NCBI GenBank assembly: GCA_964627085.1
Contig: CAZVIP010000003.1
Coordinates: 19,689-83,688, forward strand
DNA from: an uncultured Candidatus Saccharibacteria bacterium
Lineage (GTDB): Bacteria; Patescibacteriota; Minisyncoccia; Phycocordibacterales; CAIZLB01
Length of the DNA: 64,000 bases
Direction: 5' to 3'
In this document: one piece after another, positions 1 through 42,290 of the stretch
How the letters are laid out: every line of letters begins with the position of its first letter
Position numbering within the stretch: the stretch's first letter is position 1
Translations under genes and position numbers: made by a program
The notes under the pieces: generated by a model
The model's input: the letters and a program-made list of their open reading frames with translations, nothing else
Database searches by the model: none
Told to the model about the DNA's origin: nothing

Positions 1-686
1 CTACTGACAGCATCAACGAAGGGTTCTATCTCTATCCCATCATGACCACCATCAGGGTCATCTCCACAGAGCAAGACACGCTGGACAGTGCCGCGGTAAT
101 CCTGCAGTTTAGAGACAAGACAATCTGGATCATCACCAATTTGCGAGAGTGCCTCGCGATTTACTTGCAAGACAAACTCAGGCAACTTCCCTTGCACCCT
201 CTCTTTTACATCTTGGATACTCGCCGGTGTCGGCCACTCAGTATTAAGTTGCAACATGTCGAGGTTGGGGCCAGCAAGTTCCATTGCTTTTGCAATTTCC
301 TTAGCAGAAATTTTGTATTCTGTATAGTTGAAGATGAGACACCGACGGAGATGAATTTCAAACTCCCTCGGATACAGTCTCGTAAACATCTTTTGAACAC
401 ATTCCTGACTCGGATAGCGACCACCAGCTGGTTCCTCAGCGACGGTCTCAGGGCCGCAATTAATGCCGACAACAAACTTACTTCGCGAGCCATGTTTGCG
501 CTCACTGTAATATTGCCTGACGGCATCCTGCATCTGGCTTGTGCAAGTGAGGCCAGCAACATAAATTACCGGGCTTGGCTTTTTAGACTTTTCTGGACTC
601 ATGACTTTGTTTCTTTCTATTTTGGTTTTGGGCTTCAGCGTTCTGCTTGGTCCAATTTTGGATTGTGTATTGGTTTTGGTCGGCAT
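1..686 (-). CDS. Hypothetical protein, N-terminal ~228 aa (C-terminus lies beyond the window start); function not recognised
   Basis: I translated the minus strand by hand. There is an ATG at 684-686 and the frame stays open down to position 1 (MPTKTNTQSKIGPS...VIYVAGLTCTSQ...FVVGINCGPETVAEEPAGG...). The annotated + ORF 42..707 is its shadow and does not read like a protein. Confidence 0.45.
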   Translation of the reverse strand, partial: MPTKTNTQSKIGPSRTLKPKTKIERNKVMSPEKSKKPSPVIYVAGLTCTSQMQDAVRQYYSERKHGSRSKFVVGINCGPETVAEEPAGGRYPSQECVQKMFTRLYPREFEIHLRRCLIFNYTEYKISAKEIAKAMELAGPNLDMLQLNTEWPTPASIQDVKERVQGKLPEFVLQVNREALSQIGDDPDCLVSKLQDYRGTVQRVLLCGDDPDGGHDGIEIEPFVDAVS

Positions 687-952
687 CACGGTATTGTTTT
701 GCCTTAGAACTTATTCTCTGGATTAAAGAGTACCCCCTATCCATAACTTGTCAATTGTGTTGTTGTCCAAACTGACAGTGATTCTATTCAGGCAAAATTG
801 ATACCAACCACACTTTCTTTTATGCTTTGACAAAGCCTAAATACAGTGCTATAATATACAAGCACCCCGTTTCGACATACCGTCGACAGGAAGACGTGCA
901 CTGAACCCGCCAATGCATAAAAACTACACGCAAAGGCAAACCCACACAGAAA

Positions 953-1741
953 ATGAAGCTCATTCAAATTGGAACCCTCCTCGGAGTGCTCCTCTGCAAT
1001 ACCACCACAATCACTGCTGCCGATGACTCAAAAGTCCCGGTAGCTGAAGTCCAACACATCGATTCGGTGTCCACTACCGGCCACTTGTCCTTGTCCAGCA
1101 AATACCTGTCCTTCGGGTCGGGTATCGAGCTGACAGACAAACCCGTCCTGCAAGGTGACATTACCTTGAACTTCAATAAAACCGGTCTCTACGCCCTCGT
1201 CTGGGCATCCACCAGTTTCGATTCCAGTTACAGGAAGAGCAGCTCCGGCAATATCGATTTCGGCAATGAGATCAACTTGGGTGTCGGCTGGTCTGGGCAA
1301 GTGCTCGGACTCGCCACCAATGCAGGTATCACATACTTCGATGAGCCACTGCTTGGCCGAGAGGGTGCGGGAGATATCCTCTATACGCACCTTAAGCTCG
1401 GAAAGGTTCTTGGAGCAGGATACACCCTCTCCGCTTCCTTTGAGAACTACTGGGCATTGCCTGGTAGCTCAGTCGGAGGTGGAAACCTTTACGGTCTTGA
1501 ACTCTCGAACAGCTGGCACCTTGCTAGCAAGCTAACCCTGCTTGCAACCACCGCCCTTGTTTACGATGATGGAGGCTTTGGAGCCGGAAGCGGGCTACTC
1601 ATCCGTGGCGCGACAACCCTGAGCTATCAGCTCACTGATAACCTGTCGATCGACGGTGGCACCAGGTTCTACCTGCCCACCATGTCGGACTATCGCAGCC
1701 CAGACGCAACCTTCTTTATTGGCGCTTCGAAGAAATTCTAG
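953..1741 (+). CDS. Secreted beta-rich protein resembling an outer-membrane beta-barrel
   Basis: It has an N-terminal signal-like segment (MKLIQIGTLLGVLLCNTTTITAAD). Amphipathic alternating strands recur (LYALVWAST, INLGVGWSG, YTLSASFENYWAL, LTLLATTALVY, LSIDGGTRFYLP). The protein ends ...GASKKF with a C-terminal Phe. The segment is GC-rich. Confidence 0.5.
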   Translation: MKLIQIGTLLGVLLCNTTTITAADDSKVPVAEVQHIDSVSTTGHLSLSSKYLSFGSGIELTDKPVLQGDITLNFNKTGLYALVWASTSFDSSYRKSSSGNIDFGNEINLGVGWSGQVLGLATNAGITYFDEPLLGREGAGDILYTHLKLGKVLGAGYTLSASFENYWALPGSSVGGGNLYGLELSNSWHLASKLTLLATTALVYDDGGFGAGSGLLIRGATTLSYQLTDNLSIDGGTRFYLPTMSDYRSPDATFFIGASKKF

Positions 1742-2046
1742 CCGACAGACAAGAAGGTGTCTTGCGCAACAAGACACAACATCGCACGGCGCGCCCAGAT
1801 GGGCGCGCCGTTTTCAATTTTTAAATATTTGACAAAATATGATTACTGTATTACTTTATTGGAAAGTTCTTTGGAAACACGTGCGTTTACAGCCTTAAAT
1901 ACTGGAAAGATACATAAGAGCTTTTACCCTTTTTTCCGTTTTTTATTATTTATTATTTCGAATATTTAAGGCTGTAAACCACATTCAATATGGATAGTGG
2001 TAGAAATTCAGCACCACAACAAAAACACTAGAAAGAAACCGGGCTC

Positions 2047-2868
2047 ATGCCTCCGAAAACCAAACAACAGAGACTATCTTCAACTGGCATCCTCTTTCGC
2101 ATAAGCGATACGAACCCAGTGAAAAATGATCCGATCATGCAAGTCGCCTTCGGCGAGACGGTGCTCGGGACACTTACCCCTGATTGCCAAAAATACTGGG
2201 CACGGATCACTGTCGTCGGAACAAAAATCGATGAAATGACACAACGGGTCAATGACCTAACCCAGGAATTCGGGACCGCAAATGAAAAAAGTATCCTTAT
2301 CAACGGCACCACTTTGCCCGTTGAGACCGCAGTTGCCTTCCGGGCAACCCTGGCTATCATCATCGCCTGTGCGAACAAACACTTGGTGGAGTTCCGGACT
2401 CTCTGGAACTTCTTCCACACACTCGTTGAAATCGATTTCCTCGAACTGGAGGATTGTGTTCGCAATGGAAAACAATATGGTATCCGCACCGGGTATAAGG
2501 TTATTGTCCGAGACGACGATTTGCGAGGAGATGCCGACAACGCTTTTAAGCGTTTTCACAGAGCGGTGGAGCTCGCAAGAGGGCTGTTTCGTGGAGTCAA
2601 CTGTCTCGCACTTCAAACATGTGACAGAGATGCTGCAAATCACTACATTGGTATGCTTTTCTTCAAGAAAGACGATGAAGGAGGTGAGGGAGACAACAAC
2701 CCTCCTGCCCAACTCGAAGATGGCAATACCGAAGGTGGTGCAAAAGCCCCGCAGTCAACTGAGTCCTCTGCGAGCAATTCGGTAACGGCCAAGCCACTGA
2801 AGGCCAAGAAAGCGGCGAAGAAGAAGCGTGCCAAAAAGAAATCAGCACGCAAAACCACCCTCGACTAA
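2047..2868 (+). CDS. Hypothetical protein with a lysine-rich C-terminal tail
   Basis: The 273-aa ORF ends ...KPLKAKKAAKKKRAKKKSARKTTLD. A hairpin plus T-run follows it. Confidence 0.45.
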   Translation: MPPKTKQQRLSSTGILFRISDTNPVKNDPIMQVAFGETVLGTLTPDCQKYWARITVVGTKIDEMTQRVNDLTQEFGTANEKSILINGTTLPVETAVAFRATLAIIIACANKHLVEFRTLWNFFHTLVEIDFLELEDCVRNGKQYGIRTGYKVIVRDDDLRGDADNAFKRFHRAVELARGLFRGVNCLALQTCDRDAANHYIGMLFFKKDDEGGEGDNNPPAQLEDGNTEGGAKAPQSTESSASNSVTAKPLKAKKAAKKKRAKKKSARKTTLD

Positions 2869-2898
2869 ACCCACCAATCAACCACTAACCATATTGAA

Positions 2899-2939
2899 GA
2901 CCGCCCCTTTGCATTCGTGCGAAGTGGCGGTTTTCTTTT
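2899..2939 (+). terminator. Intrinsic terminator (accgcc...ggcggt stem followed by TTTTCTTTT)
   Basis: Hairpin followed by a T-run, immediately after the stop of the 2047..2868 gene. Confidence 0.5.
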
Positions 2940-3034
2940 GATTCCCCTTTGATTACATAGGTACAAAACTTGAAACAAAGCCGTATTCAGGTCAATAGCT
3001 TGACGTGGGGTCATAAAAAATGTTATAGAAAAGT

Positions 3035-3880
3035 GTGGATGAAGAATTCTCTTTATCCAATATTGCACTGCGAAGAGCTCCTATACTCAAATCAGGCAAT
3101 ATCAGTACAACAATCAAAGACACAGAAATGACCGTAACTCAGTTAGACAAGACAAATTTGCGTAGCGCACTCAATCGCTTCGCGAATGCAACCTCGCTGT
3201 TAATTCAGCAATTAGTTCTTTTGTTCGCAATCAGCTTGGGACTTTATTCCCTTTCCGTAGGCACATTGTATGCAGGAGAAGACCATGTCCATGAGGCAAC
3301 CTCAGTCGCGAGAACCGTGGCAAAGATTGCACCAGAGACCATTCCTACAGCCCATGATCGGATCGAAAAGGAAACAAATTCCCAATCCACGCCCGTTAAA
3401 GTTAAATCACCCGAGACAATTTTTGCTCGGAGCACAAGCTATAACAAAGACGAAAAAAAGTCAGACGAAGACACTCGTGCTGACAAAACCTCAACTGAGG
3501 TTGATATTTTCGATTTGAAAGAGCTTGGCTTGGGCACCGTCGCAGTCGATCCAAAAGTAATCCCATACGGGAGTGCAATCATTGCACCAGATAACACTAT
3601 CTGTATCGCAGTCGACACCGGTGGAGATGTCAAAAAAAGAAGGGCCTCAAAAGAACGCGCCGAAGCAATCGGACTTCGCCCATCGAGCAAAGAATACCGA
3701 GCACCAGTGCTCGACTTCTACAGCTATAAGCAAATGGGTAAAGAATGGGATAATTTCAGATTTATTCGCTATGAGGGCAAAACTCCTTTTCAGGAGCTAA
3801 CTTCGAGCGAGAAAAATGAATATCTCGAAACATTGTCCAAAATACTTGGTCTCAATTCCCTGCTCGCTAGCTCAAGCTAG
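3035..3880 (+). CDS. 3D-domain (MltA/YuiC-like) cell-wall-associated protein
   Basis: The C-terminal region LGTVAVDPKVIPYGSAIIAPDNTICIAVDTGGDVKKRR matches the 3D (Asp-rich) domain signature. A TM-like segment (LLIQQLVLLFAISLGLYSL) lies upstream. Confidence 0.6.
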   Translation: MDEEFSLSNIALRRAPILKSGNISTTIKDTEMTVTQLDKTNLRSALNRFANATSLLIQQLVLLFAISLGLYSLSVGTLYAGEDHVHEATSVARTVAKIAPETIPTAHDRIEKETNSQSTPVKVKSPETIFARSTSYNKDEKKSDEDTRADKTSTEVDIFDLKELGLGTVAVDPKVIPYGSAIIAPDNTICIAVDTGGDVKKRRASKERAEAIGLRPSSKEYRAPVLDFYSYKQMGKEWDNFRFIRYEGKTPFQELTSSEKNEYLETLSKILGLNSLLASSS

Positions 3881-3912
3881 TTGCATTAGGAAAAAGCAAG
3901 TGAAGTAAAAAA

Positions 3913-3950
3913 CATGTCTGTGTGGTGCCCCTTGGGCGCCACACAGATTT
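3913..3950. terminator. Bidirectional intrinsic terminator between convergent genes
   Basis: The hairpin tctgtgtggtgcccc/gggcgccacacaga is flanked by an A-run upstream and a T-run downstream. It coincides with the switch from GC-rich to AT-rich sequence. Confidence 0.55.
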
Positions 3951-3956
3951 TTTATT

Positions 3957-5213
3957 TTATTTTTTTACGATATACGCATCAATGACTTCATTGTCTACAT
4001 TTTTAAAATAACAGAGAGCTGTGTCTTTTTTACCTTCATAATTAAATGCACAAAACATTGATCCGTATTTTGCACCTTGGCTTGATGTATACACAGTAGA
4101 CCACCACGGACTTGTATATGTCTGCGGTCTGATACTCTTGCCACCTAGACCTGATACCGTAACAAATGATTTGCCTTTTTCTAGGTGTATTTCATCAACA
4201 AGACTTGAACCAGAAACACCAGCGGGATCTGACGCTGACCCTAAGCGAACCATATTTTTTGGAGATATAATTTGCTTTTCAAAACTATCCATCAAATAAG
4301 TTCGTGAATATGAATGTTCATGTCCGGTGACAATAGGAAAACCAAGGGCTCGACAAGCTTCATATGTTTGCCAGCCTGCCTCGTCAGGTTTGCTTCCAGC
4401 CTGCATAAGATGTTGATTTTTGTGCCAAACACAGAAGTTCCATGTTGCTGACAAATCTTTCATTGAAGACGCTGAAGATGTAATATAGTTTGCAAAATTC
4501 TCTTTGGTCTCTTTGATTGAATCAATACCTGGTGCCGTAATGTACATATGTAAATCACGGAACGTGCACGTTGATTTAATCGCTGTTTCCCCCGTACATT
4601 TGACTGATGGTGTATTTTTTTGATGGGAAGAAATTAACTGACTATACCCTTTCCATTCTTTTTCATCATGATTTCCAATAACTGCAATGAGTGGAAAATC
4701 TTTTCCAAGGACATTTGTGAACATGCTATACCATAAATTTGGATTATCAATATAATCATAATCCCCGAGCAGAGCGAGCGCATCTGCATTTTCATTTTTG
4801 ATGAGTTTAAGTACATCTGTGGTATTTGTATCAGCACCTTGGTCACCGACAAAAGCTACAATATATGTACTTTTGTTCATTGCTTTGATTTTAGCCGCGT
4901 CGATACTTAGATTTGAAATTGTTTTTTCTTTGTCAGGGCTAATTGAGGCCTGATTTGATGTATCTACAGCAACTTGAGTGTCATCGTCCGTCGCAGGATT
5001 ATTGACTTGTCCTTCATTCATACCCTGGCTTGTACCGAGACCACTATTTGCGCCGGTTTGCTTATCATATAAATCTTTTTGTTTTGTAGAGCGGTCGATA
5101 ATACTATCGAATTCTTTTGAGCTCTTTTGCGTATACCAATATACACCTCCGAGTGCACCTGCGATGAGGAGCAAAATAATCATCATTGCGATTACCGTTT
5201 TTTGCATGTTCAT
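3957..5213 (-). CDS. Membrane-anchored calcineurin-like metallophosphoesterase
   Basis: The motifs VGDQGAD, LLGDYDY, GNHDE and VTGHEHSY are present. I placed the start at the internal Met (MNMQKTV + TM helix), because the longer ORF to 5336 overlaps tsaD. Confidence 0.7.
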   Translation of the reverse strand: MNMQKTVIAMMIILLLIAGALGGVYWYTQKSSKEFDSIIDRSTKQKDLYDKQTGANSGLGTSQGMNEGQVNNPATDDDTQVAVDTSNQASISPDKEKTISNLSIDAAKIKAMNKSTYIVAFVGDQGADTNTTDVLKLIKNENADALALLGDYDYIDNPNLWYSMFTNVLGKDFPLIAVIGNHDEKEWKGYSQLISSHQKNTPSVKCTGETAIKSTCTFRDLHMYITAPGIDSIKETKENFANYITSSASSMKDLSATWNFCVWHKNQHLMQAGSKPDEAGWQTYEACRALGFPIVTGHEHSYSRTYLMDSFEKQIISPKNMVRLGSASDPAGVSGSSLVDEIHLEKGKSFVTVSGLGGKSIRPQTYTSPWWSTVYTSSQGAKYGSMFCAFNYEGKKDTALCYFKNVDNEVIDAYIVKK

Positions 5214-5246
5214 GTTATATATAGTATCACCAAAATAGATAATTTT

Positions 5247-6764
5247 ATGGATAAAAACCCACATATCCCTGTGCATACACAAACGCAAAGCTCTACACAA
5301 AACCCTGTACCGGGCACTGTACAAAATTCTGTGCATGGCCCTGTGCCAGGCATCTCGACATGCCCGAGGATTATTGCCATCGAAACCAGTTGTGATGAAA
5401 CTGCTATTTCATATATGTGTGGGCTCTCAGCGCTTTCTCATAGAGTGAATTCTCAGGCGGCACTTCACGCTGAGTTTGGGGGTGTTTTTCCTAATCTTGC
5501 AAAAAGAGAACATACAGAAAATCTAACCCCACTTCTTCGTCTTGTCCTTAGGGATGTATATCCGAACTTCCAGCCCGTAGAAATAGAGGAAACAGAAAAG
5601 AATCTAGCGATATTGGAATTGGAGAAAAAAGAATCTGACCACGGAAATATATCAGAATCAAAATCACAAACAATCAAAGAAATACTTGTACGCGAAGGAA
5701 ATCTCGGAGACAACCTAATCTCTTTTATCAATTCAATTTCTGTTGAAATTTTTGAAGAAATAAAAAGGACAACAGACGCTATCGCTGTGACTTATGGACC
5801 AGGGCTTGAGCCAGCGCTATGGGTAGGAATATCTTTTGCAAAAGCGCTCGCCGTCATTTTTGACAAACCTCTTTACCCCATCAACCACATGGAGGGACAT
5901 ATTGCTTCGGTGATTGCTGATAATTCTATGAATACAGATATTGCGACCAGTGTGGCCGCAGAAAACACAATCAAATTCCCCGCTATTGCACTTTTGATAT
6001 CTGGCGGACATACCGAGCTGGTGCAAATTAATTCATGGCATGACTATCATATACTTGGTCAAACTGTAGATGATGCCGTCGGCGAAGCATATGACAAAAC
6101 AGCCCGAATACTCGGACTTCCATATCCTGGCGGACCTGAAATTTCAAAACTCGCTGATATATTCCGTGCGAATATACAAAATACACAGAGCACAGATAAG
6201 CAAAGTAATGCCGTGCAATCAGAGACGCAAACAGAAAAGATGTTCACGCTCCCTCGCCCAATGCTCCATACAAAAGATTTTAATTTCTCTTTTTCTGGAT
6301 TAAAGACGGCAGTGCTCTATGCAGTACGTGACAAAGTGGCGGAGAAAAATACTGCTGATGTCGAAACCTCAGACGCAATAAATGCAGATAAAAAAACAAC
6401 ATTAGCTGAAGTGGAAAAAAGCGCACTCGCTTTTGAATTTGAGTCAGCGGTCATTGATGTGCTCGCACATAAAACAAAGAAAGCTATTGAATCTGTCGGC
6501 GCACAAAGTCTACTTATCGGAGGAGGCGTTATTTCAAACACAGCGATACGCGCGGCGTTTAGCGAGCTATGCGAATCGATGGATGTTGGGCTCTTTCTCC
6601 CTGAAAAAGATCTTGCGACTGATAATGCAACAATGATTGGACTAGTAGCCGTACTCCAATATATGGATGGTAAAAAAGGTCTCATGCCACAATCTGAAAA
6701 TGAAAAAGAATATGCTGAATTTTTGGCACTCAAAGCATGTGGTAATTTGGGTTTTGATTTATAG
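5247..6764 (+). CDS. tsaD: tRNA N6-adenosine threonylcarbamoyltransferase TsaD (Kae1/YgjD family) with large insertions
   Basis: The sequence RIIAIETSCDETAIS is followed by YGPGLEPALWVGISFAKALA, HMEGHI and SGGVISNTAIR. The start is uncertain: ATG 5247 or GTG 5343. The track ORF starts at TTG 5127. Confidence 0.75.
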   Translation: MDKNPHIPVHTQTQSSTQNPVPGTVQNSVHGPVPGISTCPRIIAIETSCDETAISYMCGLSALSHRVNSQAALHAEFGGVFPNLAKREHTENLTPLLRLVLRDVYPNFQPVEIEETEKNLAILELEKKESDHGNISESKSQTIKEILVREGNLGDNLISFINSISVEIFEEIKRTTDAIAVTYGPGLEPALWVGISFAKALAVIFDKPLYPINHMEGHIASVIADNSMNTDIATSVAAENTIKFPAIALLISGGHTELVQINSWHDYHILGQTVDDAVGEAYDKTARILGLPYPGGPEISKLADIFRANIQNTQSTDKQSNAVQSETQTEKMFTLPRPMLHTKDFNFSFSGLKTAVLYAVRDKVAEKNTADVETSDAINADKKTTLAEVEKSALAFEFESAVIDVLAHKTKKAIESVGAQSLLIGGGVISNTAIRAAFSELCESMDVGLFLPEKDLATDNATMIGLVAVLQYMDGKKGLMPQSENEKEYAEFLALKACGNLGFDL

Positions 6765-11522: not shown

Positions 11523-12149
11523 CTATTCCTCGGCCCAGACCGAAAGAAGCGGTGTGATTCTTGCGACTGTTTCGATGATAGGACCTTCGAGTGAGATGTT
11601 TCTGATCTGGCCTGCATAATAAAGACTTGATACCAGATAAGGAAAACCCATCATGATCTCGGCGATGCGTGCCGCTCTTTCCCAAGCATGATTCAATTTT
11701 TCACCCTTGAGGTATTCTGGAACACCACCCTCCGAGCCGTGATACACGTTCGCAGGAAAGACATCGTGATACTGCCCGAAAGGTGGATAAAGCAAAGGTG
11801 AGGACGAATAAACACCAGCTGGAAAGACATCCACTATTGCCCCGTCCCGAAGCTCCAGCCAAGAATGTTCGATGAATCCACCATAATTAATCCTGTGTAT
11901 CGCATCATCATAACCAATGCTGTAATGACTAGACCCTGCAATATATCCATCGACGACAGTGACCTTATCACCAAACATAATCTTAATTGCACGCACCATC
12001 GAGTGACAATTCGGCATGACAACCTCACGTTGCGGGTGTGGCAACCTCTCATGGACATTAACAGCAAACCTTACAACGTTATCCATGAGATCATAGACCA
12101 GTGCATCGTGTGTTGTGACACGGCCTAAGGCTTCAGTTGTTGTATACAT
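11523..12149 (-). CDS. Hypothetical protein (208 aa), GC-rich relative to flanks
   Basis: Clean ORF with no recognised family. It contains an NCHS motif, Y/G-rich segments and a possible Cys/His active site. Confidence 0.5.
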   Translation of the reverse strand: MYTTTEALGRVTTHDALVYDLMDNVVRFAVNVHERLPHPQREVVMPNCHSMVRAIKIMFGDKVTVVDGYIAGSSHYSIGYDDAIHRINYGGFIEHSWLELRDGAIVDVFPAGVYSSSPLLYPPFGQYHDVFPANVYHGSEGGVPEYLKGEKLNHAWERAARIAEIMMGFPYLVSSLYYAGQIRNISLEGPIIETVARITPLLSVWAEE

Positions 12150-13460: not shown

Positions 13461-13639
13461 AACGAACTATTGTTTGGGCATTGCCCGGTTTGTGTTTTGT
13501 CTTTACTTCATTTGCATAGGCAAAGATCAGTAATTTACTGTTTCATCCATAGGTTAGGGTCCCGAGATTACTTTAGACTGCTTGGACAAGCAGAAACTTA
13601 CGTCCTCGGATATTGTACTTATCTATGTTATTTTGTAAA

Positions 13640-13694: not shown

Positions 13695-13767
13695 GTGCCG
13701 AGAGCCGGGCTCGAACCGGCGACCCCATCCTCTTCAGGGATATGCTCTACCAACTGAGCTACCTCGG
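13695..13767 (-). tRNA. tRNA-Phe (GAA)
   Basis: The reverse complement folds as a canonical cloverleaf: GCCGAGG / TAGCTCAGTTGGTAGAGCA / anticodon loop CTGAAGA / GGTTCGAGCCCGGC / TCTCGGC-A. CCA is not encoded. Confidence 0.9.
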
Positions 13768-26443: not shown

Positions 26444-26621
26444 ATTAGCAGAAATTTCTTATACTCTTATGAGTATCTGAGTCCGTTTTCCTTCAATCTC
26501 CTATCCGCCACACGATGTGGTTTATAGGATCTTTGAGGGAAAACGGATAGCTCCTTCACAAGATACTGTTTGCTATCCAAAACAAACTGAATGAAACCGG
26601 GGCACTGCCCCACAAAACTGA

Positions 26622-28094
26622 ATGAAAACTGCTACACTGAAAGTAACACACATCGGCCGAATCACCACAGTCTCTCAAGACTTTGCATACGGCTTTATCA
26701 GCATCGCCACGGTCTCCAAGATCGACGATATCCAACACGGTCTTGCGACCACAGTGGATATCTACATCCATCAAAATGATTGCAGCTCACGACCTCTCAG
26801 GGTCGGCATGCTTGTATCATTTGATGTCACACCTGACCTAACACGGGCGGGTGCGTTCCGAGCAATCGGAGCTGTTGAGGAAATCGAGGCAGAACTCCTC
26901 CCTGAAGGCCAACAGCCGATGGAAGGATTCAACGCTCTCGCGCCCTTTGCTGGGACATCCACGCTTGCACAAGCCGATAACGGTGGCTACATCCCGCCAA
27001 CACAAGCACAGGCACCAAAGATGAAGGCTTCCGACCCGGCAACACTCGCATTGGTTAGTGCAAACAACCCGGCGCCTGGCATCCCACGGGACCACACGGT
27101 CCCGGAAAACGTTGACGAGCTTATGGTATTGTTTCTACAAAACCAATACCCCTCGCTAGTTAGTTTCGGTGCGCACTTTGGTCTGGACTCGGATGAAACT
27201 GAGTTCAATGAGCAAGTATCAGCAGCGACAGAAGAACTGAGAGGACTCGGCATGGATACCCAAGTCGGAATCCTCGAGAACGAGGCAGCTCACTTCTTGT
27301 CATTCCGCAAGGCCTTGGTCATTATGAAGCGCGAAAAACTCATCCGGAAAGACGCCATCATCCCGATGGAGTTCTTACCAGACTTCTTCGCAGCAGTTCC
27401 AGTTTGGTTCCATTTCGGAAGTGATGAGGAGCACAGGTTGGCAACTAACGGCGATCAGCGTGGGGCCTTGCTGGTTCCACCAAGAATCAGAGCATTCTGC
27501 AGCATTTTCCCCAACCAAAACTGGGTAGACATGCTATTGATGTTCAATCGCCGTCCAAGAACACACCAGATGTATGCAGGAGATCAAATCCCACTAAGCG
27601 TCCTTCGTCGTGTTCGGGAGATGCTCCCACATTTTGATCACGTGGTCATCATGACCCCTTATCACGATGTGGCAGGAAGGGATTGGCAGAGGCTTAGCAC
27701 CCTCCGTAATCCTGACCCATACATCATTGGAGTCAAGGTAGGGGTTCCATACTTCTTCATTCTCGCCAGGTTCAGCGACAGCGGGACATTCCCTGCTCAT
27801 CACGAACTAATTGCAGACACAATGAAATTCTTGGACAACAACAAGGACAAGTTGAGAGGTTTCAACTCAACACCAGGTCTCGAGTGGCTCGGATACGACC
27901 CTATCAATCCCAGCCGGACAGTAGGGGACATTTCTTCCATGAATGGCATGGGTGTTGGTCGGGCAAACTCCCTCGGTGATCATCTCATCAAAACAGCCGA
28001 AGAAGCTCTCCTTGCTTTCGAGCAAGGAAAACTCTTCGATTGGCTCCGGGGAGCAAAGCTTGAACCAGTGACTGAAACAGCTTCGGCAAAATAA
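26622..28094 (+). CDS. Hypothetical 490-aa protein: cold-shock-domain-like N-terminus fused to a large domain of unknown function
   Basis: The N-terminus (LKVTHIGRITTVSQDFAYGFISI...TVDIYIHQNDC...VGMLVSFDV) follows the CspA pattern (KGxVKWFNxxKGFGFI...VFVHxSAI...VxFxV). The gene is GC-rich, with its own promoter, long leader and terminator. Confidence 0.6.
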   Translation: MKTATLKVTHIGRITTVSQDFAYGFISIATVSKIDDIQHGLATTVDIYIHQNDCSSRPLRVGMLVSFDVTPDLTRAGAFRAIGAVEEIEAELLPEGQQPMEGFNALAPFAGTSTLAQADNGGYIPPTQAQAPKMKASDPATLALVSANNPAPGIPRDHTVPENVDELMVLFLQNQYPSLVSFGAHFGLDSDETEFNEQVSAATEELRGLGMDTQVGILENEAAHFLSFRKALVIMKREKLIRKDAIIPMEFLPDFFAAVPVWFHFGSDEEHRLATNGDQRGALLVPPRIRAFCSIFPNQNWVDMLLMFNRRPRTHQMYAGDQIPLSVLRRVREMLPHFDHVVIMTPYHDVAGRDWQRLSTLRNPDPYIIGVKVGVPYFFILARFSDSGTFPAHHELIADTMKFLDNNKDKLRGFNSTPGLEWLGYDPINPSRTVGDISSMNGMGVGRANSLGDHLIKTAEEALLAFEQGKLFDWLRGAKLEPVTETASAK

Positions 28095-31014: not shown

Positions 31015-31222
31015 TATGATTTATGGTAATAAATAATTTCCGCAATTCGCAAAATGCGCGATCACCCCACCCCTATCGCCCAATATTGCCTTTTGCATAT
31101 TTTGGAATACTATATACACGGAAAATTCCATTCACGAGGTTTGGGTTAGTGTCAGGCAAAATACTTTGTCCCCTACTCACCTCAATCAGCACAACACGGC
31201 GAGAGCCAAACCACAATTGAAT

Positions 31223-32086
31223 ATGAAACCGCACACTATTAACCCAAAACTCCGCTATGCATGCATTGCTCGTGCAGAAATTGCTGCGAACCTAGCTCAA
31301 AAGAAAACTCGAACCAGCAGAGAAAATGCATGGAAAAACATCTGCCGCGACATTCGTCGAGGGCGCTCGACATTCGGAGACCCACAAAACCCTCTGCTCG
31401 ACAAGCTCATCTTGTCTCTTGGGCAGAGCGTTTTGCACAAACCTGACTTACTTGGAAGCATAGTAGAGAGGGCCAAAAGAAATATTACCGCCCTGCAAGA
31501 AGCTGGCAACACCGTGGTCTTCGTCGTCGAATATGAAGAAAAAGGTGCGAGGCTCGCATATATCGGGCCGTACGGAGGTGAAAGTCTCGGAAATCTTATG
31601 CCCAGCAATCCAGGAACACGCTCAGAGTTTCTTATATTTGCTGGTATCACTTCCGGTGATGCGAATGCTGTTGAAACCTTTGTCGATAGCATCTTGCCCC
31701 GAAAACCAAAAAGTGCCGCGGAGTTGATGGCAATTCCGGGTAGCCCTGAACCAGCAGTCGAACTACCATTTCAAAAATTCGTCATGGTGGACACAGGCAA
31801 ATTCATGTGCACAGATTCAGATGGACTATCTCCAGTGCAGGATGGGCCATGCCTAGTGGATCCAGAGCATGCTGAACAGTTGCGTCCAGCCCTGCTAGGC
31901 CTCGGATTACGTGATTTCGAAGTGTATATCTGGGGAAGCTGCTTATGCTGGGACGACTTATCCAAAAACGACCAGAACGGCTTAGTTATCAAAAACGTGC
32001 AGTCTGAACGGCTCCAGCAACGCCTCGGAGATATCCGCCTTGCATTACAGAGCCTCGGTTGGGGTCTGGAAACTGCCCCAGCATAA
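31223..32086 (+). CDS. Hypothetical protein (GC-rich orphan)
   Basis: Clean ORF from ATG 31223 (MKPHTINPK...). I recognise no family. It is followed by a strong bidirectional terminator. Confidence 0.5.
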   Translation: MKPHTINPKLRYACIARAEIAANLAQKKTRTSRENAWKNICRDIRRGRSTFGDPQNPLLDKLILSLGQSVLHKPDLLGSIVERAKRNITALQEAGNTVVFVVEYEEKGARLAYIGPYGGESLGNLMPSNPGTRSEFLIFAGITSGDANAVETFVDSILPRKPKSAAELMAIPGSPEPAVELPFQKFVMVDTGKFMCTDSDGLSPVQDGPCLVDPEHAEQLRPALLGLGLRDFEVYIWGSCLCWDDLSKNDQNGLVIKNVQSERLQQRLGDIRLALQSLGWGLETAPA

Positions 32087-36934: not shown

Positions 36935-37282
36935 CTAAAGTATAGCACCTTTTTTGGCTTGTTTTAATAAATATACACTCTTGCCAAGACTGTTTTTGTG
37001 TTTTTCAAATATGACACCTTCTGTTTGTAGGAGCTCAATCTTTTTGGCGATGTCTCTTTTCCCTATAAATGTATACTCTCCCACCTCACCATTTGTCCGA
37101 ATAATGCGGTGGCATGGGATGATAATTGGCTTCTTATTTTTTCCGACAATTGTCGCAATGGCGCGGATTGCTCCAGGAAACCCTGTTCGCTTAGCCAGTT
37201 CACGATATGAAATAACCGAGCCCCTGCTGACTTTTTTTATTTCTGCATATATTTGTTCGGGGTCGATTTTTGTTTTAGTCAT
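36935..37282 (-). CDS. MGMT-family (O6-alkylguanine-DNA alkyltransferase DNA-binding domain) protein
   Basis: PCHRII active-site-type motif (IIIPCHRIIRTNGEVGEY). I placed the start at ATG 37282; the track ORF begins at an upstream TTG. Confidence 0.7.
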   Translation of the reverse strand: MTKTKIDPEQIYAEIKKVSRGSVISYRELAKRTGFPGAIRAIATIVGKNKKPIIIPCHRIIRTNGEVGEYTFIGKRDIAKKIELLQTEGVIFEKHKNSLGKSVYLLKQAKKGAIL

Positions 37283-37410
37283 TTTTTTGTTGTTTCTGTT
37301 GTTTTGTTTTTTTGCAAATCTATTTTTTTTGCGTATCAATGCCGTCGCAAATCACATATTCCCCATTTTATTTTAAATGCTAGAATAGCGCCATAGACGA
37401 AAAACACCAG

Positions 37411-37457
37411 GTGTCTCATGTGTCTTGTGTGTCTTGTGTACCTTGTGTGTCTTGTGT
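37411..37457. repeat. 9-bp tandem repeat (GTGTCTTGT-like, about 5 units) in a divergent promoter region
   Basis: Directly visible: gtgtctcat gtgtcttgt gtgtcttgt gtaccttgt gtgtcttgt gtaaac. Confidence 0.6.
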
Positions 37458-37515
37458 AAACTTTTTTTAGACAAGAAAATCAATGAGATAGGATCAAAAT
37501 AAAGAAATTACCAAC

Positions 37516-38208
37516 ATGCTCGAAACCCACATTAAATCTATAGAAAATTCCTGGAAAAAGATTTTTGATGAATTCTTTATGACGAATTCAGGTTTAGATA
37601 TTTTGAAAAATTTTGATAAAGAGATGGCCGTCGCACCCGAATCCACCCATCCAGCAAAAGAGTTTATTTTTCACGCCTTTAACCTCTGTCCTTTGCAAAA
37701 GACGAAAGTCATTATTCTCGGACAAGATCCATATCACGGCGAAGACCAAGCCATAGGTTTATCTTTTGCCGTACCCAATCACACAAAAATTCCGCCATCA
37801 CTTCAAAATATATTTAAAGAAATTGAAAATGATTTGCAGGTTGAGGTAGATAAAAAGAATGGCGACCTTTCTCGATGGGCAAACCAAGGTGTGCTTCTGC
37901 TAAATAGTGTTCTCTCAGTTCGCGGTGGATTACCTGGATCACATTCACATATTGGATGGGAACATTTTACAGATTACATAATCAAATATCTGAGCGATCA
38001 CACATCAGGGCTCGTCTTTTTGCTCTGGGGAAATTTTGCTAAAAAGAAAAAGTCGTTAATTGATGAGACAAAACATCTTGTACTAGAATCCGCGCACCCT
38101 TCACCACTATCCGCACATGGCAAAGAAGGTTTTTTCGGTAACCACCATTTTTCAAAGGCAAATAACTATTTGAAAGACATTGGTGCGAGTGAGATTGACT
38201 GGAAATAA
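37516..38208 (+). CDS. ung: Uracil-DNA glycosylase (family 1)
   Basis: Motifs GQDPYHG, LLLNSVLSV and HPSPLSA are present. Confidence 0.9.
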   Translation: MLETHIKSIENSWKKIFDEFFMTNSGLDILKNFDKEMAVAPESTHPAKEFIFHAFNLCPLQKTKVIILGQDPYHGEDQAIGLSFAVPNHTKIPPSLQNIFKEIENDLQVEVDKKNGDLSRWANQGVLLLNSVLSVRGGLPGSHSHIGWEHFTDYIIKYLSDHTSGLVFLLWGNFAKKKKSLIDETKHLVLESAHPSPLSAHGKEGFFGNHHFSKANNYLKDIGASEIDWK

Positions 38209-38287
38209 TCTGTGAGGATGAAACTAAGCAACTATATTTTTTTTGAATAGACTCAGACTTATTAATTCATACATGAATGCTATCAAA

Positions 38288-38722
38288 TTACTTTTCTGTC
38301 TTATGGTGTTTTTTCATCTCCCTGCATGAGTTCTTTATCACAGCCTTAAGTACCATGAGATCAACATCCTCAATGCTTTTTATTGCTAAGCATGATTTTC
38401 CAGATAACTTGTACTTACCTAACTTTTCAATATCTTGTCTATACATTTCCCAGCCCATCATGTTGTAAAGTGTAAAACCACCAGATGAGACAGCAAATCC
38501 TGTTATGAGATATGTGTGCTCACCACCCTTACTATCTAAATAATGATATTTCCCAAAACCAAAAATCTTATTCCACATCACACAGGATGAGCCTGAAGCT
38601 TTTGAGTGCAGATCAACCAAAACCGATGCTTCGTTTTGCAATTTCTCTTTCCCTTTAAAGTTATTTTTTATATATTTTTCAGAGCTAATTGCTGTCGGCT
38701 GAGTTTTATTAGTATATGACAT
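38288..38722 (-). CDS. YdhG/DUF1801-like small protein (tentative)
   Basis: About 140 aa, with a central GFAVSSGGFTLY block. The assignment is from memory of the family and is weak. Confidence 0.4.
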   Translation of the reverse strand: MSYTNKTQPTAISSEKYIKNNFKGKEKLQNEASVLVDLHSKASGSSCVMWNKIFGFGKYHYLDSKGGEHTYLITGFAVSSGGFTLYNMMGWEMYRQDIEKLGKYKLSGKSCLAIKSIEDVDLMVLKAVIKNSCREMKKHHKTEK

Positions 38723-38783
38723 GTGTGGATTGTATCTTGATTAATTTACCGAAGATATAATATAAAAGATTGATTACAATTTA

Positions 38784-39239
38784 TTAATTCTTCTCAGCCA
38801 CCTCCTTTAGTTTTTCGAGAGCCTTAGGCCATGTAGCAACAAAATATTCATAATATTCATCGGTTGCATCCATGTCTAATGTAAACAAAGTTGATCCATC
38901 TCTTTCTTCAAAGGTGTAGTTCTCATAACTTGGTGCCCATTTTTTAACCTCTTCACTTGTTGTGTCTTCGATACTATTACTTACATAACCATTATGTTTA
39001 ATTGAAATATATTTAAATTGAATATTATCTGCTATCTCACTAACCATACCTCCTTCACCATTAGACTTTGGGTCTAGACCAAGAAAAAGAATCTTAGAAC
39101 CCTTGTTCCAATCACCTTTAAAATAAGAACCTGGACAAAAAGCCGATGTCCATTCCCTGTACTTATTTTCATCAGTGACAGCATCCCAAACTTTTTCTAC
39201 GCTAGCATTAATCCTTATGCTTAAATTTATTTTTTTCAT
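38784..39239 (-). CDS. SRPBCC / AHSA1-domain protein
   Basis: N-terminal VEKVWDAVTDENKYREW motif and ~150 aa length. Confidence 0.65.
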   Translation of the reverse strand: MKKINLSIRINASVEKVWDAVTDENKYREWTSAFCPGSYFKGDWNKGSKILFLGLDPKSNGEGGMVSEIADNIQFKYISIKHNGYVSNSIEDTTSEEVKKWAPSYENYTFEERDGSTLFTLDMDATDEYYEYFVATWPKALEKLKEVAEKN

Positions 39240-39279
39240 ATTATTTTATTATGTTTATTTTGATTATTACTGAACGACT

Positions 39280-39678
39280 TTAATTTTTACTTTTGCGCTT
39301 ATCAGTACTTATACCCAACACCTCTGCAATCTTCTCCATTTTTTTACCCCTTGCAAGATCGTCAACAAGTTTATCTAAGTACCGCACCTTTTTGGTCAAT
39401 CGGTTATCGATCTCCTCAATCCTATAACCACATATCGACCCGGTTATATTTTTTGCATTTGGATTTAAATTGGCCTCTTCAAAAAAGCCCTTAAATGTAA
39501 TCTTTTGATCAATTAATTCACCTACTCTTTTTTTATTAAAACCAGTCAACCACTCAATCACCTGACACAACTCTTCCTTTGTTCTACCCTTCTTTTCAAC
39601 CTTTTCCACATAGCACGGATAAACAGAGGCAAAAACCATCTTAGCCATTCTATCGTTATGTTCCTTTGTAATTTTCAT
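39280..39678 (-). CDS. DUF2200-family protein
   Basis: MAKMVFASVYPCYVEKVEKKGRTKEE...WLTGF...YLDKLVDDLARGKKMEKI matches the DUF2200 family pattern I remember. Confidence 0.55.
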   Translation of the reverse strand: MKITKEHNDRMAKMVFASVYPCYVEKVEKKGRTKEELCQVIEWLTGFNKKRVGELIDQKITFKGFFEEANLNPNAKNITGSICGYRIEEIDNRLTKKVRYLDKLVDDLARGKKMEKIAEVLGISTDKRKSKN

Positions 39679-39785
39679 ATCTTACTTTTACCCAGTATTG
39701 TATCTGGATTATAGAGTTATTATGTAATAATTTTCTCATATTCCACGAAAACTTGTCTACAAAACTATTTTATCATTTTATTTTG

Positions 39786-39872
39786 CGGAGAGAGGGAGAT
39801 TCGAACTCCCGGTACCCTTTCGAATACGCCACCTTTCCAAGGTGGTACATTAGACCGCTCTGCCATCTCTCC
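39786..39872 (-). tRNA. tRNA-Ser (GGA), long variable arm
   Basis: Reverse complement: GGAGAGA TGGCAGAGCGGTCTAATGTA CCACC TTGGAAA GGTGG + long variable arm + GGGAGTTCGAATCTCCC TCTCTCC G. CCA is not encoded. Confidence 0.85.
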
Positions 39873-40037
39873 AATATATTTGATTTCACCCCTGTTTTGT
39901 TGCGCAGGCAAATATTCGTACATCTGCATTTTATACACCAAAACACATTAAGTTTATATCACATTTTTCTATAATTTTACTAAAGGAAAAATTAATGTTT
40001 ATTTGATACTCTTTTTCCATAAATTTAATGTGGCCTA

Positions 40038-42290
40038 TTGTATATTCTGCATATGCGATCTGGAGCAGAGAAAAATACTGTAAATCAAAAAGACAGAAGC
40101 ATATATGCGTTCGGTCATCCCGGGTGTATTTGTTCTGCAACACCGAGAGCGAATGTAGATAAGCCAATTTTTATTTCTGCACTTGAATCACTTTCACACC
40201 TCAGAACACTTGCGTATAGAAAGTTTGGATTAGGGCATGATTGTGAGAGTTATCTGGTAAGCGTTAATCACATGCGAAACTGTTGCCTATTTTTATCGCA
40301 GATATCAGCTGACGGGACCATAAATTATTACAATCGAAATTCTCAATTTTCTGAGTTGTATCCAGATGATATCGACGACACATTCACCTGTCTTCATATT
40401 TTAAATACATATCCAGACAGCAACCTTTTACCACCCCGTACAGGTGGTTATATACACCCAGAACTTATCGCTCGGACAATTGAGGGTTTGGATAAGATCA
40501 GGTGTAGACCATCAGATATACTAGGAGATACTGGATCTTGCCCGACCACAGATGATGGTATCTTATTTAATACTTGGTATAGCCACCTACCCCAATTCAA
40601 ATCAATTGACATTACAGCCCAAACTTCAGTAATTGCATTTTTTGATAGTGTAGGTTTTGACTGCACAAGACTTAAAGACATAGTCAACGAAGCTTTCATC
40701 CAGAGAATTCAATACGCAACATATTTTGAAGATACACTCTGCCAATTTTCTGAATTCTATCAATCACCTTTTTTGCCTATATATTTATTTAGTAGATCAA
40801 AACTAAGTGGTGATCAGCTAGAGTGTTTTGTCACATCAACATCAGCGCTATTACAGAAAAGTTTTTTCAGGCAGAACAATATTTCTTGTCACGCTTCAAG
40901 CGTGGGAAGCTGGACCAAAATAGACACACTTCTCCTTGTGTGTGCAATAAATTATCAATTACATAGCTTTCTTTCATCAAACAATACAGACCCGGACGTA
41001 CTATTAGGTGCGGGGTGTAATCAGAGCACTCGCCTTATTTATGAAATACATAAAATCAAACATATACTCAAGTATTTTGCAGGACAAAATCAAAGCAAAA
41101 TTTCATATTTAAAAGGATTGAATCCTACCAGATACCCGCTCTATATTGAGAGACAATCCGTGGAAGTAACAACATATGCACATAGCGAAACTTTTATAAA
41201 GAATATTGCAAGAGAAGCAATACTTGGGTCAAGACAAATTCTTTCTAAGTACAACAAGTCGAGTCACCTTGTGGACATTTCCACCCCGAGCTACACCTAC
41301 AAGGATCTAAACTCAATTACTCTCACCGATATTTGCACGGATGAAATACATCTTTGTCTTTTTGAATATATTGAAAAGTTTACCGCAGATGAAAAAACAT
41401 ATATTCAATCTTTAATCAGTGACCTCACAAATTCAACTGACTTTCAGATTGCAAAAGACATCTTTAATTCCAAATTTAGTCAGGTTATCACTTGTGCAAA
41501 TAAAATCGGGGGAGAAGCAGGAAGGCATATTTTTTATTTATATTCTGGAGTTTCAGAGTGGGTCACATATAGACCAGTACATCTATTATCAAATCATTTA
41601 CTCGGGATTATTGGTTTTTATCTATATGACAAAATAATCGACAAAGAGTTAAGTGTTACATATCTCCCTATATCAAAATATTGCATTCAAGTATTTGAAG
41701 AATGGCTTTGCGATATTTTCTTGTTAATTAATACAGACATGAAACTGTCCATATCTCACATACTCTATCTCATGAATATTTCATACCTTGAAGAAGTGCA
41801 AGGTAGACCAATTCCGATCAAAAATATTCACCACAAGTCTATTTGTAGCTCTATTCTGGCACTTATCGTATACCCAAAATACGCAAATCAAACCATCTCA
41901 TATTTTGAACACCTACAATGCGCAAGACAAATCTGTGATGATCACAAAGACTTTGACTCAGATTTCAAGACTGGAAAATCAACATCGATGACTCATTTCT
42001 TGCGAAATGTAAAAAACCAAAACAAAGAAAAAATAACAAGACAAAACAGCGACAATCTCATCCTTGGGCCAATACCAAAATTAGACGAAGAGAAAGTTTA
42101 CACTTACCTTACGAACAAGTGCGCCAAGACCATAGAATGTGTAGCGTACACACAAGACATAAAACTTAGACACATCTACACAAAGTACATAGAAAATCTT
42201 TGTGAAAAAATAGACAAAACAAAAATGGAGCAGAAAATACTTTCTAAACTACGAGATACCGCAGGGACACAGGGCACTCTCCCGCCTTAA
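40038..42290 (+). CDS. Large (750 aa) Cys-rich hypothetical protein with two Asp-rich DDxxD-type motifs (possible isoprenoid-synthase-like fold)
   Basis: DDIDDTF is near the N-terminus. QICDDHKDFDSDFKTGKST near residue ~640 resembles the second Asp-rich motif of trans-prenyl/terpene synthases. There are many Cys residues. The gene has the AT-rich host-like composition. Confidence 0.6.
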   Translation: MYILHMRSGAEKNTVNQKDRSIYAFGHPGCICSATPRANVDKPIFISALESLSHLRTLAYRKFGLGHDCESYLVSVNHMRNCCLFLSQISADGTINYYNRNSQFSELYPDDIDDTFTCLHILNTYPDSNLLPPRTGGYIHPELIARTIEGLDKIRCRPSDILGDTGSCPTTDDGILFNTWYSHLPQFKSIDITAQTSVIAFFDSVGFDCTRLKDIVNEAFIQRIQYATYFEDTLCQFSEFYQSPFLPIYLFSRSKLSGDQLECFVTSTSALLQKSFFRQNNISCHASSVGSWTKIDTLLLVCAINYQLHSFLSSNNTDPDVLLGAGCNQSTRLIYEIHKIKHILKYFAGQNQSKISYLKGLNPTRYPLYIERQSVEVTTYAHSETFIKNIAREAILGSRQILSKYNKSSHLVDISTPSYTYKDLNSITLTDICTDEIHLCLFEYIEKFTADEKTYIQSLISDLTNSTDFQIAKDIFNSKFSQVITCANKIGGEAGRHIFYLYSGVSEWVTYRPVHLLSNHLLGIIGFYLYDKIIDKELSVTYLPISKYCIQVFEEWLCDIFLLINTDMKLSISHILYLMNISYLEEVQGRPIPIKNIHHKSICSSILALIVYPKYANQTISYFEHLQCARQICDDHKDFDSDFKTGKSTSMTHFLRNVKNQNKEKITRQNSDNLILGPIPKLDEEKVYTYLTNKCAKTIECVAYTQDIKLRHIYTKYIENLCEKIDKTKMEQKILSKLRDTAGTQGTLPP

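Follow-up and report, generated by a model that had tools for sequence, protein, structure and literature searches.

How does a gene for an outer-membrane-type protein come to lie in a genome that otherwise looks monoderm? The question is raised by the left end of a 64,000-nucleotide stretch of contig CAZVIP010000003.1 (assembly GCA_964627085.1, positions 19,689 to 83,688), which we call the window at its full length. The initial annotation of the window, made from the sequence alone, described its first 3.9 kb as a guanine-cytosine (GC)-rich block encoding a beta-barrel protein at 953..1741, and offered two origins for the block, horizontal acquisition or an assembly chimera. We hold with moderate confidence that the evidence as a whole is best explained by a variable region of a Candidate Phyla Radiation (CPR) genome that carries a horizontally entered, functional TorF-like barrel gene, whose high GC content at third codon positions (GC3) has been kept by selection. 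Loci in other assemblies are given L numbers below, and related proteins P numbers.

A Predicted Beta-Barrel of the TorF/Gcw_chp Superfamily

Read directly from the sequence, the N-terminus of the 953..1741 protein is MKLIQIGTLLGVLLCNTTTITA followed by ADD. With its basic residue, hydrophobic core and A-x-A-like site, it shows the pattern of a predicted Sec-type signal peptide. Hydrophobic and polar residues alternate along the strands that follow. AlphaFold2, run on a 14-sequence alignment, returned an all-beta model (predicted local distance difference test score (pLDDT) 75.9, predicted template modeling score (pTM) 0.72) with 12 long strands and one 3-residue bridge; residues 2–13 form a helix that corresponds to the signal, and a disordered linker comes next. 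The 50 matches that Foldseek listed from the PDB were nearly all natural outer-membrane barrels. The best was NanC (E = 9.5e-8, template modeling score (TM) 0.54/0.67), followed by FapF, the COG4313 channel, KdgM (TM 0.51/0.75), Tsx and PcoB. The protein is thus predicted to be an outer-membrane-type beta-barrel, in agreement with the initial annotation.

The protein's own sequence stayed below the Pfam and NCBIfam thresholds, but those of its relatives did not. Ten of 14 relatives matched PF09694 (Gcw_chp) and 17 of 23 matched TIGR02001 (TorF family putative porin), with a best E of ~2e-9, and a precomputed PF09694 annotation was present on relatives P0007, P0013, P0143, P0145 and P0146. When a profile of the subfamily (A2) was compared by hhalign with P0155, a gammaproteobacterial “TorF family putative porin”, the match had 97.8% probability and E = 1.1e-12. 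Because the relatives match these hidden Markov models (HMMs) and the profiles agree, we assign the barrel by sequence comparison to a divergent, remote branch of the TorF/Gcw_chp putative-porin superfamily. The branch is well set apart: in a word-indexed search with the subfamily profile, canonical TorF proteins scored E = 1e-7 to 1e-4 and subfamily members <= 1e-54, and the invariant motifs YLAFGSG, TYFDEP and YDDGGFG are peculiar to the subfamily. In an exhaustive profile search, E <= 1e-30 was reached by 141 cluster representatives and E <= 1e-3 by 1922.

The C-terminus of the barrel is GASKKF. It has the terminal Phe of the beta-signal (G-x-x-aromatic-x-F) but Lys three from the end instead of an aromatic or hydrophobic residue. 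Most relatives carry the canonical signal, as in GGLRYQF, GITYKF and GMSWNF; the deviants are L013 and P0005, which end in TWKP, and L016 and L017, which run one residue beyond Phe. The Pfam KdgM family gave no match for the barrel, which resembles it in fold alone, at 10–14% identity. A phage origin was also considered and rejected, as the barrel had no relative in IMG/VR and no PHROG match.

Host Lineage and Envelope Type

The valyl-tRNA synthetase (ValRS) encoded in the window has named best matches, at 57–65% identity, that all belong to Pacebacteria, Parcubacteria, Taylorbacteria, Lloydbacteria or Paceibacterota. Judged from these relatives, the window genome is a CPR genome of the Parcubacteria/Paceibacteria type. 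A Pfam scan of ~46 open reading frames (ORFs) in the window and 6 in its left flank gave matches to MurJ, DsbB/DsbA-like proteins, RNase J, class II ribonucleotide reductase, PrsW, LemA, DUF1189 and PGA_cap, and none to families of outer-membrane biogenesis. Likewise, the immediate barrel neighbors scanned at five further loci included neither Omp85 nor any other gene of outer-membrane biogenesis. The view that the rest of the window is monoderm-like therefore holds. The literature describes CPR as a monoderm clade that has lost porins and one cultivated CPR bacterium as having no outer membrane, while noting that the envelopes of most CPR are uncharacterized. Since the genome is of monoderm type and its scanned ORFs include no outer-membrane biogenesis family, the barrel is truly out of place here, as had been proposed.

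Continuity Across the Junction

A GC step next to a hairpin is a typical site for a misjoin, so the barrel could in principle owe its position to GC-rich diderm DNA joined onto a CPR contig at ~3950 during assembly or binning. Assemblies from other runs leave this barely credible. Logan assemblies of two separate runs, L001 (SRR13443990, a 37-kb contig) and L002 (SRR13444056, a 16-kb contig), match the window at 100% identity through the 3950 junction. Both reach 9 kb further left, into AT-rich genes for TrmB, NUDIX, LemA, a TPM phosphatase and thioredoxin reductase (TrxR), so that AT-rich CPR genes lie on both sides of the block. A strain variant, L023 (SRR13443995), has an identical gene order with 7 mismatches in 7.7 kb. 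Sequence is thus unbroken over 3900–3960 in the assemblies of all three runs, at 99.9–100% identity, and the barrel protein is encoded on 21 contigs. We therefore set aside the chimera that the initial annotation had allowed for.

Distribution, Phylogeny and Genomic Neighborhoods

Relatives of the barrel were found at 12 loci among GTDB species representatives: 6 labeled CPR, 3 Verrucomicrobiota and 3 unlabeled AT-rich metagenome-assembled genomes. Saccharibacteria account for four of the labeled CPR carriers, including a 270-kb contig; the other two are a Paceibacterota and a Minisyncoccia, the latter on a contig of 404 kb. The Verrucomicrobiota relatives, which include an Akkermansia sp., have GC contents of 63–68% and are 44–47% identical to the barrel. 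Relatives of the barrel thus occur in Saccharibacteria, Paceibacteria and Verrucomicrobiota, the last being its nearest diderm homologs. A literature search found nothing relevant on TorF/Gcw_chp or on beta-barrel porins in CPR. CPR are an unexpected group of hosts for this TorF-like porin subfamily, of which we found no published account.

In neighbor-joining trees, the clade of the window protein (with P0002–P0004) was sister to the Verrucomicrobiota clade with 100% bootstrap support. When the tree was rooted with TorF, both clades fell within a CPR-dominated subfamily. Because they group as sisters inside that subfamily, the gene is likely to have moved between CPR and Verrucomicrobiota, in either direction.

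Within CPR, the barrel is a solitary gene that sits at different housekeeping loci in different lineages: beside GrpE and an integrase, beside a UvrD-like helicase, or upstream of GH3-TrmD. Other immediate neighbors are MraZ, a lysyl-/asparaginyl-tRNA synthetase (LysRS/AsnRS)-type enzyme, CorA, an S41 protease, DprA, CofD, a P-type ATPase and an aminotransferase. No conserved partner and no outer-membrane machinery was found near the barrel in the examined loci. A link to peptidoglycan-active neighbors (GH3, PG_binding_1, 3D) was considered as well, but it holds in 4 of ~13 contexts, which is too inconsistent to claim.

Some of these neighborhoods have features of their own. In L008 (4533–13979), from an AT-rich genome, a barrel 55% identical to that of the window directly follows the dnaJ-dnaK-grpE operon; after it come a phage-type integrase and then genes with GC3 ~0.54 (GH3 auxin-amidase-like, VTT domain, radical SAM). 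This region looks like a classical integrated island. In L024, from a freshwater AT-rich genome, a prophage-like cluster (1–5700; DUF5681, two DNA methylases, Phage_rep_O-like) lies ~5 kb upstream of the barrel, and a 2278-aa GH43 multi-domain protein and a PG_binding_1 protein are encoded just downstream. The barrel is directly upstream of GH3 (NagZ-like) and TrmD in L025 and L026, both of Saccharibacteria type. L013 has the same three genes as L025, plus a gene for a 672-aa PG-binding protein between barrel and GH3. The barrels of L013 and L025 (52% identity) are less conserved than the flanking proteins (63–88%).

Layout and Base Composition of the Block

The gene content initially annotated for the block was all found: a partial gene, a beta-rich secreted protein ending in Phe, a lysine-tailed protein and a 3D-domain protein. 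The bidirectional terminator described at 3913–3950 is there too, as a 15-bp-stem hairpin at 3916–3948 with T-runs on both strands. The features of positions 1–5213 are as follows.

1..686, minus strand: 5' part (228 codons) of an orphan gene for a 308-aa protein, with its start codon at 686, running past the left edge; GC 47.1%; full length taken from L001
827..855, plus strand: sigma-70 consensus promoter match, TTGACA, 17 nt, TATAAT, with a preceding TG; 12/12; 97 nt before the barrel start codon
953..1741, plus strand: barrel gene, predicted monocistronic, 262 aa, with predicted signal peptide and C-terminal Phe; GC 53.6%, GC3 62.7%
1786..1811, plus strand: predicted intrinsic terminator of the barrel gene, 11-bp stem with 10 G-C pairs, then a T-run; -25.5 kcal/mol
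1885..1979, no strand assigned: long hairpin in the spacer between the barrel and 273-aa genes, 24-nt arms, 92% complementary, 47-nt AT-rich loop; ~-32 kcal/mol on either strand
1984..2004, plus strand: left arm of an inverted repeat, 21 nt, 43 nt before the ATG of the 273-aa gene
2047..2868, plus strand: orphan gene for a 273-aa protein with a Lys-rich C-terminal tail; GC 50.0%, GC3 53.6%
2878..2898, minus strand: right arm of the inverted repeat, 21 nt, 10 nt after the stop of the 273-aa gene
~2900–2935: terminator-like hairpin after the right arm; -26.1 kcal/mol
3035..3880, plus strand: gene for a predicted membrane-anchored 3D-domain protein, 281 aa, PF06725; GC 44.6%
3916..3948, no strand assigned: predicted bidirectional intrinsic terminator, 15-bp stem, -34.9 / -24.8 kcal/mol, between the convergent 3D and metallophosphoesterase genes
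3957..5213, minus strand: metallophosphoesterase gene, 418 aa according to the Logan assemblies; 38% GC

A sliding-window scan of GC content across the 64 kb (3950-bp windows, n = 1201) ranked positions 1–3950 first of 1201, at 47.0% GC against 40.5% for positions 3951–64000. The first 3.9 kb is thus GC-richer than the rest, as first described, but the excess is graded rather than uniform: it falls from 53.6% in the barrel gene through 50.0% (273-aa) and 47.1% (308-aa) to 44.6% in the 3D gene. The last value is inside the ordinary range (fructose-bisphosphate aldolase (FBA) 47.1%, SAICAR synthetase 47.6%). According to the left flank taken from L001, the GC-rich stretch starts ~240 bp left of the window edge. 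Raw tetranucleotide distance was extreme only in 1–3000 (0.31) and 1001–4000 (0.30), ~4 standard deviations from the mean (0.188 +/- 0.029), and was ordinary for windows from 2001–5000 on. Once normalized for base composition, the tetranucleotide signature of the block was ordinary as well (r = 0.78 and 0.75 vs 0.787 +/- 0.053).

Equally GC-rich single genes occur elsewhere in the window, at 26622..28094 (51.3%) and 31166..32086 (49.7%). With 54579–55823 (43.9%) and 11523–12149 (46.7%), they make up a set of further GC-rich orphans in which GC3 reaches 0.54. These four had no Pfam or PHROG match and no mutual similarity, and no paralogy was found among the GC-rich orphan genes of the window. 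GC-rich orphans are also present at other AT-rich CPR loci, such as h191 in L025 (GC3 0.60) and h133 in L013 (GC3 0.50).

Transcription, Selection and GC3 of the Barrel Gene

The predicted barrel promoter matches the sigma-70 consensus at 12 of 12 positions, has an extended -10 element and would give a 5' untranslated region of ~95 nt. The arrangement TTGAC-N-TGCTATAAT precedes 13 of 29 barrel genes at other loci, compared with 19 of 452 control ORFs, an enrichment of ~10x, and a strong GC-rich hairpin lies 3' of the barrel gene at nearly every locus examined. These signals mark the gene as a predicted self-contained transcription unit. Seven pairs of barrel genes gave ratios of nonsynonymous to synonymous substitution rates (dN/dS) of 0.09–0.25, which indicates purifying selection. 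We conclude that the gene is probably functional and strongly transcribed. A leader of ~95 nt is unusual for the window genome.

The third codon positions of the barrel gene stand out. GC3 is 62.7%, and C makes up 43.9% of third positions (C3) against a background of 18.3%. The gene prefers the rarest codons of the genome: TCC (31% vs 4% background), ACC (67% vs 12%) and CCC (33% vs 5%). The initial annotation had linked the GC excess to horizontal acquisition or a chimera. Comparison across loci does not support reading it as a simple sign that the gene was acquired recently, as the barrel family holds high GC3 through vertical descent in AT-rich CPR. Barrel GC was equal to or above flank GC at 32 of 33 loci, at 51–55% where the flanks have 36–42%. 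Collinearity of L016 with L017 extends over 16 kb; their flank proteins are 76–94% identical, and their barrels, which occupy the same site, have a synonymous divergence (dS) of ~2. L013 and L025 are also syntenic (TrmD 79% identical, GH3 63%); their barrels are 52% identical and dS is saturated. In all four loci barrel GC3 is 0.50–0.68. Since GC3 is kept at collinear, dS-saturated loci, the GC excess is not simply a scar of recent transfer.

Codon adaptation of a very highly expressed native gene could also raise GC3 and C3. The perfect consensus promoter and strong terminator would fit this, as would the concentration of the excess in C-ending codons (C3 44% vs 18%) and a mild C3 rise in HSP20. 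The genes that such adaptation should affect most have the opposite composition, however. Ribosomal-protein genes have the lowest GC3 in L025 (L7/L12, L10 and L19, 0.21–0.24) where the barrel has 0.67, and in L008 the adjoining DnaK has a GC3 of 0.32 where the barrel has 0.54. The low GC3 of these genes means that the excess is not expression-linked codon bias, and the preference of the barrel for TCC, ACC and CCC, the rarest codons, is against it too. We regard codon adaptation as very unlikely. The high GC3 is probably upheld by selection on synonymous sites or on the mRNA rather than by recent transfer. Why this should be so is a matter for guesses, among them slowed translation through rare codons and mRNA stability.

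Other Genes of the Block and the Variable Region

The 308-aa protein had no Pfam, PHROG or PDB match, and the idea that it is TrpF-like was supported by no search. The 273-aa protein had no match in Pfam, NCBIfam, PHROG or PDB, and its single-sequence AlphaFold2 model was unusable (pLDDT 36.6). The 21-nt inverted repeat that brackets the 273-aa gene is complementary at 19 of 21 positions (2 matches vs 0.01 expected), its arms pair at -23.4 kcal/mol, and the window holds no further copies. Through the arms, the two ends of the mRNA could pair with each other; alternatively, the arms could be terminal repeats of a small mobile unit. The 3D protein passed the PF06725 cut-off (26.3 bits against 23.8, E = 8.9e-6, residues 168–203) and had weak matches to Bacillus subtilis YuiC, in the PDB, and to Ent cell-wall-binding proteins. 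From these matches it is probably a peptidoglycan-cleaving enzyme of the YuiC/MltA-3D-like kind.

Two relatives of the window genome, L050 and L051, have ValRS proteins 72–73% identical to that of the window and share the synteny to its right, from TsaD-ValRS-PrsW-HSP20 on to FKBP, ZIP and DsbB. To the left they differ. In L050, TrxR is followed by TsaD within ~1.5 kb; L051 has LemA, NUDIX, a 41%-identical 3D homolog and then TsaD. A tblastn search of the 10 kb upstream of ValRS in L050 and L051 found no barrel, 273-aa, 308-aa or metallophosphoesterase gene. The stretch from the conserved TrxR/LemA/NUDIX genes to TsaD-ValRS is a variable region among relatives, occupied here by accessory genes. 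The barrel, 273-aa and 308-aa genes appear from this comparison to be lineage-specific additions to it. The 3D gene is resident, since L051 has a 41% homolog at the syntenic position. Because the AT-rich metallophosphoesterase gene is also without a match in the L050 and L051 flanks, the variable region reaches beyond the GC-rich part.

These comparisons bear on the possibility that the whole 3.9 kb is one recent island from a GC-rich Gram-negative donor, with a GC content that is still the donor's. In its favor, the block is the most GC-rich stretch of the window, three of its genes (barrel, 273-aa and 308-aa) have no match in the fetched flanks of relatives, the sister clade of the barrel is Verrucomicrobiota at 63–68% GC, and the L008 barrel borders a GC-rich island, next to a phage-type integrase. 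However, one of the four genes, that for the 3D protein, is resident, separate terminators follow each gene, the barrel also has a promoter to itself, and we found no integrase, tRNA or flanking direct repeats (the nearest tRNA to the block is at 13695). The ordinary GC-normalized tetranucleotide signature also argues against a single island, as does the distance of the nearest diderm homolog of the barrel, which is just 44–47% identical. Moreover, the barrel is GC3-rich in collinear CPR loci with saturated synonymous sites, and homologs of the 308-aa, 273-aa and 3D proteins were found near the barrel at no other locus. A single recent island is thus quite unlikely. Horizontal acquisition, as first proposed for the block, fails for the block as a whole, given the 3D gene at the same position in L051 and the separate terminators, but is plausible for the barrel gene alone, because relatives of the window genome lack it and Verrucomicrobiota form its sister clade.

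Possible Roles of the Barrel

In the explanation we favor, the barrel gene would have entered CPR genomes horizontally and its product would be exported through Sec. Beyond the CPR cytoplasmic membrane, the protein might then form a channel for passive diffusion across a further lipid layer. Because a cultivated CPR bacterium has no outer membrane, our leading guess, a tentative one, is that the barrel, at the site of contact with a diderm host, enters the host's outer membrane and opens a nutrient conduit there. An unrecognized outer lipid layer on the CPR cell itself would be a less likely alternative. A wider version of the host channel can be imagined, although we think it improbable: several CPR classes, among them Saccharibacteria and Paceibacteria, would keep a dedicated, strongly transcribed TorF-like porin, export it and plant it in the outer membrane of a diderm host as a private channel through which these metabolically minimal episymbionts draw host metabolites, and a deliberately non-native, GC3-rich coding sequence would help to tune its synthesis or export in a cell without periplasmic chaperones or the beta-barrel assembly machinery (BAM). 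In a variant of this, some CPR would have an unrecognized outer lipid layer that needs porins.

It is also possible that barrel-carrying CPR truly have an outer membrane or an equivalent lipid layer and that the barrel is an ordinary porin. The gene is under purifying selection and apparently strongly promoted in many CPR lineages, most copies keep a C-terminal beta-signal-like motif (G-x-x-aromatic-x-F), and Paceibacteria envelopes have hardly been imaged. Against this, no outer-membrane biogenesis gene was found in ~73 kb of the genome or among neighbors at five further loci, CPR are held to be a monoderm clade that lost porins, and the cultivated CPR bacterium was described without an outer membrane. 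The gene is also sporadic, being absent from the same region in L050 and L051, and its sporadic occurrence does not fit an essential envelope component. We consider an ordinary porin in a CPR outer membrane unlikely.

Several points weigh against a horizontally entered TorF-like barrel that is functional and acts in an outer lipid layer. Barrels of the outer membrane depend as a rule on the BAM complex and on periplasmic chaperones. Host-membrane insertion is a guess reached solely by eliminating the alternatives, and to our knowledge the envelope of the window lineage has never been imaged. The negative result for outer-membrane markers spans ~73 kb of genome, so that BamA/Omp85 could be encoded elsewhere. 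The barrel protein itself had no Pfam match at E <= 10 and no NCBIfam match at E <= 1, its TorF/Gcw_chp assignment comes through relatives and profile comparison, and its structural model is of medium confidence, with predicted closure and uninspected coordinates. The 141 representatives at E <= 1e-30 carry no taxon labels, and the picture of a mostly CPR family comes from pattern-limited scans. Strong expression is read from a promoter match, which is itself no proof of activity. As for transfer, no integrase or recombinase family was found in the block or its flanks, there were no flanking direct or att-like repeats above chance around the block, and the GC-normalized signature of the block is ordinary, none of which points to recent transfer.

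CPR/Patescibacteria may make up a large part of bacterial diversity, and how they take up nutrients from their hosts is a central open question. A conserved porin-type subfamily in several CPR classes is a concrete and clonable candidate for a pore at the host interface or, alternatively, grounds for looking again at CPR envelopes. The finding would amount to no more than an accessory porin gene of an ordinary kind if the barrel is a leftover or the host simply a CPR bacterium of diderm-like type. There is also a methodological warning in these data, as a GC-rich gene in an AT-rich genome is here an unreliable sign of recent transfer. A family that keeps a GC3 of ~0.5–0.7 over long vertical descent, counter to the codon preference of ribosomal-protein genes, points to an unexplained form of selection on synonymous sites.

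Additional Features of the Window

Shine-Dalgarno sequences are nearly absent before window genes. Several genes have a TATAAT-like box just ~6–12 nt before the ATG, for example on the minus strand at 5213, 36106 and 44642. This pattern suggests that leaderless or very-short-leader mRNAs are widespread in the window genome. The Shine-Dalgarno sequence was considered as a marker of foreign genes and is uninformative, the whole genome being without such sequences.

The motif AACCGGG occurs with a small GGGC...GCCC hairpin before three genes, those for the 273-aa protein, FBA and a 490-aa orphan, at most 30 nt from the start codon (2037–2043, 13484–13490 on the minus strand, and 26595–26601). As a signal of GC-richer genes it was rejected, because its count is not above chance (4 vs 2.6 expected).

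Positions 37000–42500 are AT-rich (33.6–37.5% GC) and surround a tRNA-Ser (39785–39872), with several small ORFs and a 750-aa orphan at 40038..42290. This region has the lowest GC-normalized tetranucleotide correlation of the window (0.61–0.70) and may be a second, AT-rich island.

Comparison With Known Systems

The block is like an integrase-bearing genomic island in that its lineage-specific genes deviate in GC and occupy a variable region between conserved genes, and in L008 the barrel abuts a phage-type integrase and a GC-rich island. The window differs from such islands in its lack of an integrase, a tRNA target and flanking direct repeats, in the independent transcription units of its genes, and in a GC excess that outlasts vertical descent. 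For the 3D protein, the closest counterparts are YuiC-type or stationary-phase-survival 3D (MltA-like) enzymes. It passes the 3D gathering score and weakly matches YuiC, but the match covers ~40 residues, and the N-terminal part with the membrane anchor is unrelated.

The porins KdgM and NanC (PDB 2wjq, 4fqe, 8xua) are the best structural matches of the barrel and share with its model 12 strands and a small monomeric barrel. At 10–14% identity the resemblance is one of fold, not of family, and KdgM and NanC work in the outer membrane of Enterobacteria after BAM-dependent assembly. We know of no demonstrated function that could be cited for TorF itself. TorF/Gcw_chp proteins are like the window protein in length (~230–260 aa), in having a signal peptide and a C-terminal aromatic residue, and in their all-beta fold. 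The window protein differs in falling outside both HMMs, and it belongs to a subfamily that has its own motifs and occurs mainly in CPR rather than in Proteobacteria.

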